Positions 5,582 through 5,756 of a DNA stretch of 64,000 nt are shown in pieces. The stretch covers positions 16,926,001 to 16,990,000 of the forward strand of contig OZ024763.1 in NCBI GenBank assembly GCA_964016885.1, written 5' to 3'. A program made the position numbers and the translations under genes. This stretch comes from Eledone cirrhosa (lineage: Eukaryota). How positions within the stretch are numbered: position 1 is the stretch's first letter; each line of letters starts with the position of its first letter. The notes under the pieces were generated by a model, which did no database searches, was not told the origin of the DNA, and saw only the letters and a program-made list of their open reading frames with translations.

Positions 5582-5756
5582 ATAAGATCGAAAGATGGTT
5601 AAAAGAGTTCCAAGTATTTTATTAATAAAATACTTGGAACTCTTTTAACCATCTTTCGATCTTATATTATTTATACTCCAGTCCTACAAACTGTAGAGTG
5701 CTTCTTATCCGATATTTGCATTGTTTTATTGTGCTACAATAAAACTCACCTCCTAC
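5582..5756 (+). mobile_element. Fold-back 3' fragment of the HHR element family at 19879/20231
   Basis: Perfect palindrome ~5582-5666 centred on TATTTTAT-TA-ATAAAATA, then the family tail with GAGTGCT; flanked by (TA)n. Confidence 0.85.

Follow-up and report, generated by a model that had tools for sequence, protein, structure and literature searches.

Endonuclease-bearing (EN+) Penelope-like elements (PLEs) of the Hydra clade insert into (TA)n targets and carry hammerhead ribozymes, according to excerpts of PMC8557442; this and the other published accounts named here by accession are cited from excerpts. Inverted 5'-truncated copies, tails on one side only and hammerheads within the pLTRs are known features of PLEs. 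The role of the hammerhead in endonuclease-bearing PLEs is stated as unclear (PMC8557442), and one in vitro study, on the Poseidon element PAc of Anolis, describes cleavage as dispensable and reports, in the excerpted part, no RNA ends at the cut (PMC11167929). In that system both target strands are cut and then extended by the protein, the tail is delimited by two internal sites at which reverse transcription (RT) begins, and uncut RNA serves as the principal template (PMC11167929). An antisense template has been proposed for the head-to-head structure of PLE copies, whose origin is unsettled (PMC3846280).

The element described here, found in a 64-kb stretch of the Eledone cirrhosa genome (the whole stretch analysed, hereafter the window), resembles Poseidon PAc in the hammerhead located in its pLTR, in two outer ends that match the two RT start sites and, probably, in the predominant use of uncut RNA as template (PMC11167929). 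It differs in that the ORF of PAc starts inside the hammerhead while ours starts ~210 nt past the cut, and in that the excerpted account of PAc has no ends at the cut while a small class of joins is found there in our element. Comparison with R2 is instructive on other points. The position of the ribozyme cut marks insertion junctions in R2 (PMC3774820), and may do so here; cDNA 3' ends prime on cDNA in both (PMC11371274). In R2 an HDV-like ribozyme sets the normal 5' end (PMC3774820, PMC11371274), whereas here the hammerhead lies within the element, the main 5' end coincides with the pLTR start, and no more than ~1% is attributable to the cut. The ribozyme itself has the type I form and short palindromic stem III of the minimal and dimeric hammerheads of metazoan PLEs (PMC4209133) and non-LTR retrozymes (10.64898/2026.07.22.740005), and like the ribozymes of those systems it lies in pLTRs, often as opposite-strand pairs. 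Unlike them, as excerpted, our element forms no short tandem retrozyme arrays in the loci read here; its copies are solo, inverted, or within 3.9-kb coding tandems.

Results

The sequence at 5580-5667 of the window is a perfect palindrome with 44-bp arms, no spacer, and its centre between 5623 and 5624. Its letters are CAAGTATTTTAT-TA-ATAAAATACTTG, exactly the arm-TA-arm arrangement given in the first-pass annotation of this DNA. Just one other non-microsatellite perfect palindrome with arms longer than 40 bp is present in the 64-kb window, at 30594-31021. It spans 428 bp (214-bp arms) and has a CTGAAGA word directly after its pivot, for which the type I hammerhead descriptor picked up no GAAA core partner.

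Positions in the pLTR are numbered from the predicted hammerhead cut, with +1 as the first base 3' of it. A script match against the copy at 19879-19949 places both arms of palindrome 5580-5667 up to -2, with an overlap of 2 nt. The arms therefore lie near the cut, as had been annotated, but the TA is no foreign spacer: it is the two bases 5' of the scissile bond, the end of the 5' cleavage product. As the TA is templated at -2/-1, the 3' fragment of a cleaved RNA would not contain it, and the join in this copy is not free of bases 5' of the cut. The arms have an uncommon variant in common. Palindrome 5580-5667 is a doubly truncated insertion, in head-to-head form, of a young Penelope-like retroelement in (TA)n.

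Table 1 Features of palindrome 5580-5667, its setting, and the related copies in the window
Feature	Coordinates	Strand	Basis or remark
(TA)n target microsatellite, left	5496..5581	.	sequence
Inverted arm without tail, pLTR ~+43 back to -2	5580..5624	-	arm comparison
Pivot TA common to both arms, equal to hammerhead U16.1 and A17	5623..5624	.	descriptor and script match
Forward arm, pLTR -2 to +43 (+1 = 5625)	5623..5667	+	arm comparison
Tail extension, forward arm only, ending CCTAC at +132; continues to ORF start in full elements	5668..5756	+	
(TA)n target microsatellite, right	5757..5824	.	sequence
Second insertion, inverted arm with tail	19750..19850	-	96% to 5663-5757
Second insertion, forward pLTR arm from ~-92, contains hammerhead	19850..19986	+	
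Type I hammerhead: stem I 19879-19886/19942-19949, CUGAUGA 19887-19893, stem II, GAAA 19930-19933	19879..19949	+	
Same hammerhead: palindromic stem III UGCGCA, then UA, predicted cut after 19941	19879..19949	+	
Third pLTR copy with hammerhead, predicted cut after 20293	20202..20345	+	
Fourth copy, from ~-45, head-to-head with minus-strand pLTR and tail of another hammerhead family	32860..32957	+	

The copy at 19879-19949 fits the type I hammerhead descriptor, having CUGANGA, GAAA, an NUH triplet and three stems, and its predicted cut is GCGCAUA^AUAAAAUA. This cut agrees with the first-pass annotation, which was mistaken in calling the copy full: it too lacks its 5' part and adjoins an inverted arm that bears the tail. 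Among ten copies compared from several families, two-sided changes occur in stem II and one-sided changes only in stem I. An Rfam search of the window returned no hammerhead match at the gathering score. A simple descriptor gave 15 rows of candidate type I hammerheads at 14 core sites in the 64 kb, in at least six sequence families. At 32554-32957 two different hammerhead families stand head-to-head, with the tail on one of them and a hairpin-forming linker at ~32790-32860; the join suggests two RNAs in one insertion event, although it may be due to nesting. Inverted pLTR-type insertions of other families are seen at 17680-17990, 35780-36020, 45150-45430 and 46760-46990, and in each the inverted arm passes its predicted cut.

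The genome contains 2575 exact matches to the 31-nt motif at the border of arm and tail. Upstream of the motif are a 3' UTR and an ORF, and full units repeat at ~3.9 kb with the order pLTR start (-125), hammerhead, inner end (~+50), tail end (+132) and ATG (~+213). The 3.9-kb unit also occurs in head-to-tail tandem, with open frames of 821 codons (L171-L174). The single ORF of 799 aa, which comes from a sister subfamily of the window's copy, gave a model with pLDDT 84 whose top four Foldseek matches are all TERT. Its motifs are RWT at 36, DKT at 122, CNCRIKNKC at 658, CNLC at 758 and CLH at 786, and its C terminus shows the LIY..YFG..R..H pattern of a GIY-YIG endonuclease. YRDD is conserved in 34/34 aligned homologues, DKT in 32/34 and CxCX5C in 29/34; endonuclease fragments adjoining other copies carry the same linker as the 799-aa ORF. 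Sequence searches were less informative: Pfam gave no RT match for the ORF, Pfam and PDB gave it no name, and the Pfam GIY-YIG family was matched by 3/34 homologues (best E 0.00017) with the 799-aa query itself unmatched.

The telomerase-related RT, C-terminal GIY-YIG, partial-tandem pLTRs, inverted 5'-truncated copy and one-sided tail are those of an EN+ PLE. Shared more specifically with the Hydra clade (PMC8557442) are the single ORF, the motif set of RW(K/T), DKT, the CxCX5C linker and the endonuclease CxxC and CxH, the lack of a Cys pair (CCHH) between GIY and YIG, the canonical hammerhead, the (TA)n insertion, the partial tandems, and the inverted 5'-truncated copy with its tail at one end. 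Placed by these motifs, the element is Penelope-like, with the pattern of the Hydra clade. It departs from the excerpted description of that clade (PMC8557442) in its 3.9-kb unit, against generally <3 kb, in RWT in place of RWK, in its tail of ~80-90 nt, against the 30-40 bp given for PLEs, and in its very high copy number (the 2575 motif matches). A Neptune/Nematis identity was considered and dropped, the query having neither the CX2-5CxxC linker nor DKG. An RT fragment has 150 scored matches at 98-100% identity, and from this identity the family is young.

Genome joins were found by exact patterns; totals are those of the tool, classes were counted by hand among the rows listed, and a script check covered 41 junction loci together with the initial 30 rows of the narrower free-arm list. 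A tail-anchored set, unbiased by 5' end, was formed by 72 copies from the first listed places of the 31-nt motif (L002 left out): 27/72 begin at -107 to -138 and 1/72 at +1. The pLTR start is the main pivot, with 1808 places that have both arms there. The 50 such joins listed include 21 with a 4-nt overlap, 6 with a 2-nt overlap and 18 with an extra C, a base found also at the pLTR-start end of 14/33 loci. The extra C stands where the genome would template G, which equals an extra G at the sense 5' end. Reverse transcription is able to copy the cap, as it does in other retroelements. The extra base fits cap copying, and on that view it would show where transcription starts and favour a template of sense polarity; our literature search found no paper that ties the extra C to the cap.

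Joins near the ribozyme were found at 60 places with a short centre and at 144 with a longer one. Among 50 listed of the 144, the pivot lies in the stem III palindrome in 13-14 cases and in the TTTT/AAAA flanks around it in 20; these joins lie 5' of the cut and hence need RNA 5' of the cut. Of 100 listed joins with one arm at the pLTR start, 72 have a free arm that extends past the cut (hand tally), and no step in breakpoints is seen at the cut among the 100 listed (+1..+10: 28; -10..-1: 11; -20..-11: 34). Asymmetric joins of hairpin type dominate from +12 to +33 (~26/50 listed), and hairpin-type joins with stems of 4-5 nt are common, so snap-back probably operates too. The outer ends of insertions are fixed at two points, the tail end and a point ~80 nt inside. 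Arms within a locus are near-identical, with a median identity of 0.993 vs 0.974 to other loci (29 loci); this and the hairpin-type joins argue that same-template or snap-back events are common. Chimeric arms also exist, given the two families at 32554-32957 and the different variants in the two arms of locus L195, from which it follows that two templates are usable. Internal deletions with microhomology occur in the family.

The origin of palindrome 5580-5667 can now be addressed. We lean, at a little better than even, to a join of two cDNAs from uncut element RNA through the TA just 5' of the predicted cut. Priming at the two RT start sites would give one cDNA from each target strand. These cDNAs would mostly run off the capped RNA 5' end at the pLTR start, where terminal self-complementary microhomology would join them; shorter cDNAs would join at internal palindromes or microhomologies, as in palindrome 5580-5667. 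A separate small class with both arms at +1, ~1% of the main class, would represent run-off from self-cleaved RNA, and palindrome 5580-5667 lies outside it. In agreement with the join on uncut RNA, -2/-2 joins, the type seen here, are as rare as joins at other 2-nt symmetric sites, passing the cut is the rule, joins from two templates exist, and the in vitro work on the anole PLE shows both strands cut, two RT start sites and uncut RNA in use (PMC11167929). Less easily accommodated is that in all six fetched -2/+2 joins the arm that reaches -2 is the one with the tail.

The same letters parse as two +1 ends with an untemplated TA, that is, as run-off at +1 on self-cleaved RNA followed by fold-back or by a second +1 end. 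Such an origin has precedent, since R2 cDNA is documented to snap back once its synthesis on a ribozyme-cleaved template has run to full length (PMC11371274), and the +1/+1 class is strong in the family (24/41) and includes, in a second family, three joins with foreign inserts. Yet the insert is precisely the templated -2/-1 TA in every -2/-2 case (3, 4 and 2 in three families), no 2-nt insert other than TA lies between +1 ends among the 41 tight joins, and a zero-loop hairpin cannot, as we reason, prime itself. We consider self-cleaved RNA an unlikely source of palindrome 5580-5667. For the central TA taken separately, templated read-through is the simpler source and a modestly probable one; untemplated addition is improbable. 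The first-pass annotation had proposed a self-cleaved template and a cDNA snapped back at its 5' end. Neither part is supported for this copy: the pivot has both its bases 5' of the cut, the join type is rare (3/41), and a hairpin without loop would be no primer. Of the two explanations that the annotation had set against its own, TA microhomology does apply to palindrome 5580-5667, and uniform breakpoints do not, as the breakpoints are non-uniform.

The near-identical arms and the uncommon variant that they share would also fit one self-copying cDNA, made on uncut RNA and self-primed by snap-back so that the second arm is its copy. Self-priming has been proposed for PLE head-to-head palindromes (PMC3846280), and the common hairpin-type joins with 4-5 nt stems are what it would leave. 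In palindrome 5580-5667 no loop remains, though, and the chimeric arms and the two fixed outer ends also speak against it; we regard this origin as quite improbable. Least probable, to the point of being very doubtful, is a longer inverted insertion that later lost its centre by DNA-level deletion, or an assembly artefact. Long perfect palindromes are unstable, and the microhomology deletions in the family are of the right kind. Against this, the fetched sister joins differ in flanks and subfamily variants while keeping the one-tail layout, deletion would not prefer one AT over its neighbours, and the inverted letters at the pLTR start are found also in contigs of public runs. In sum, the join of two cDNAs on uncut RNA is the reading that we retain, and palindrome 5580-5667, taken alone, is an inverted pLTR fragment of an ordinary kind and makes a poor case for cleavage.

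The family as a whole presents a different picture. All 41 tight joins were listed, and 24 of these are +1/+1 with an AT overlap (three on unplaced contigs, one with a mismatch); the remainder are -2/+2 (8), +1/-3 (5), -2/-2 (3) and -3/-3 (1), with none at +2/+2. Other 2-nt symmetric sites are used less (+6, 4/50 listed of 60; +28, 2/50 listed of 152), and the 4-nt TTAA site in 0/50 listed joins. The excess at +1 over equal use of four sites has p ~1e-10 under a naive null that ignores site-to-site variation. By number, the +1/+1 joins are ~1.3% of the pLTR-start joins (24 vs 1808). A stem I hairpin as the origin of this class was ruled out, the 8-nt stem I microhomology being used in 2 joins only. 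A single master copy was ruled out likewise, for the flanks differ among the 21 fetched +1/+1 loci and several subfamily variants are represented; whether the three loci on unplaced contigs duplicate placed ones was judged by eye.

The class recurs in other families. In the second family, which has AT at +1, it is the leading class with 7/37 joins (p 0.02 uncorrected, 0.10 corrected), and five of these have no A run (TTTC-AT-GAAA); the 37 also include 4 of -2/-2 type, 2 with a 4-nt TATA and the 3 +1/+1 joins with foreign inserts (G, TG, ATTT). The third family has 2/10 and the fourth one near-match among 6. Family C, with CAG at +1, gave 0/21 symmetric +1 joins and flat free ends (-2:13, -1:11, +1:5, +2:16, +3:5, +4:11, +5:22; 17 indels set aside; 100 listed of 187). 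A one-base deletion at the cut recurs in this family (5/100 listed rows) and may indicate a subfamily whose cleavage triplet is altered. Family D, with AAT at +1, gave 0 blunt +1 joins among 48, with 2 at +2 and 2 of -2/-2 type. For one-sided ends, the narrower list has 19/100 at +1 against 12 at -3/-4, 9-15 at +6 and 34 over +8 to +10 (p 0.04-0.16), and the joins without overlap number 8 at +1 against 2 and 1 at neighbouring AT sites (p 0.009); the broader list is flat from -3 to +10 (100 listed of 761, ~21 indels set aside). The peak at the cut that the earlier annotation had anticipated is thus present in symmetric joins, and weak or absent in one-sided ends and in the two control families.

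Discussion

We place at even odds the proposal that the +1/+1 palindromes (24, 7 and 2 in three families) are fossils of self-cleaved RNA that was reverse-transcribed and inserted in the germline, making up ~1% of joins. Because the class shares the geometry of the main class, it is most simply read as the product of a second hard 5' end, located at the cut. The competing account accepts the excess as real and attributes it to an RT stop on leaving stem I at the folded uncut core, or to a local AT preference. We put it slightly below an even prospect, a weight that concerns the family-level excess and not palindrome 5580-5667. A stop at the boundary of stem I and core in the uncut ribozyme predicts the same position, and DNA cannot separate it from cleavage.

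Several results sit well with such a stop: family C has no symmetric +1 joins in 21 and no +1 spike in its free ends, family D has no blunt join in 48, +1 is top in the narrower one-sided list without standing apart (19 vs 12 and 9-15), and the broader listing is flat. RNA reads of the anole PLE neither began nor ended at the cut (PMC11167929, as excerpted), and in vitro cleavage by PLE hammerheads is weak (PMC4209133). Other results are harder to reconcile with it. Both arms halt on the same base, just as in the pLTR-start joins; the stem I microhomology, 8 nt long, serves 2 joins and the 2-nt one 24; the class recurs without an A run in the five TTTC-AT-GAAA joins; and joins without overlap favour +1 (8 vs 2 and 1). 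Moreover, families C and D have no self-complementary end of the kind that such a join needs. The genomic trace of ribozyme activity claimed by the first-pass annotation accordingly finds partial backing in the family (24/41, 7/37 and 2/10) and not in the copy for which it was made, with the qualifications that the class equals ~1.3% of pLTR-start joins and that the controls show no spike.

Our literature search, with most subscription papers outside its reach, yielded no report in which PLE joins are mapped to the hammerhead cut. With thousands of young copies in one genome, both the role of the hammerhead and the origin of the head-to-head structure can be approached by counting. For most inversions the join map favours a capped sense template, and it yields a first figure for the frequency with which cleaved RNA serves. 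Within the family, the signal at the cut is small but testable, and that at the pLTR start is far larger. If the reading of the +1/+1 class is true, this class would be rare genomic evidence that PLE hammerheads cut in vivo, and head-to-head joins would read out both 5' ends of the RNA, the capped start in ~99% and the ribozyme cut in ~1%, on a sense template.
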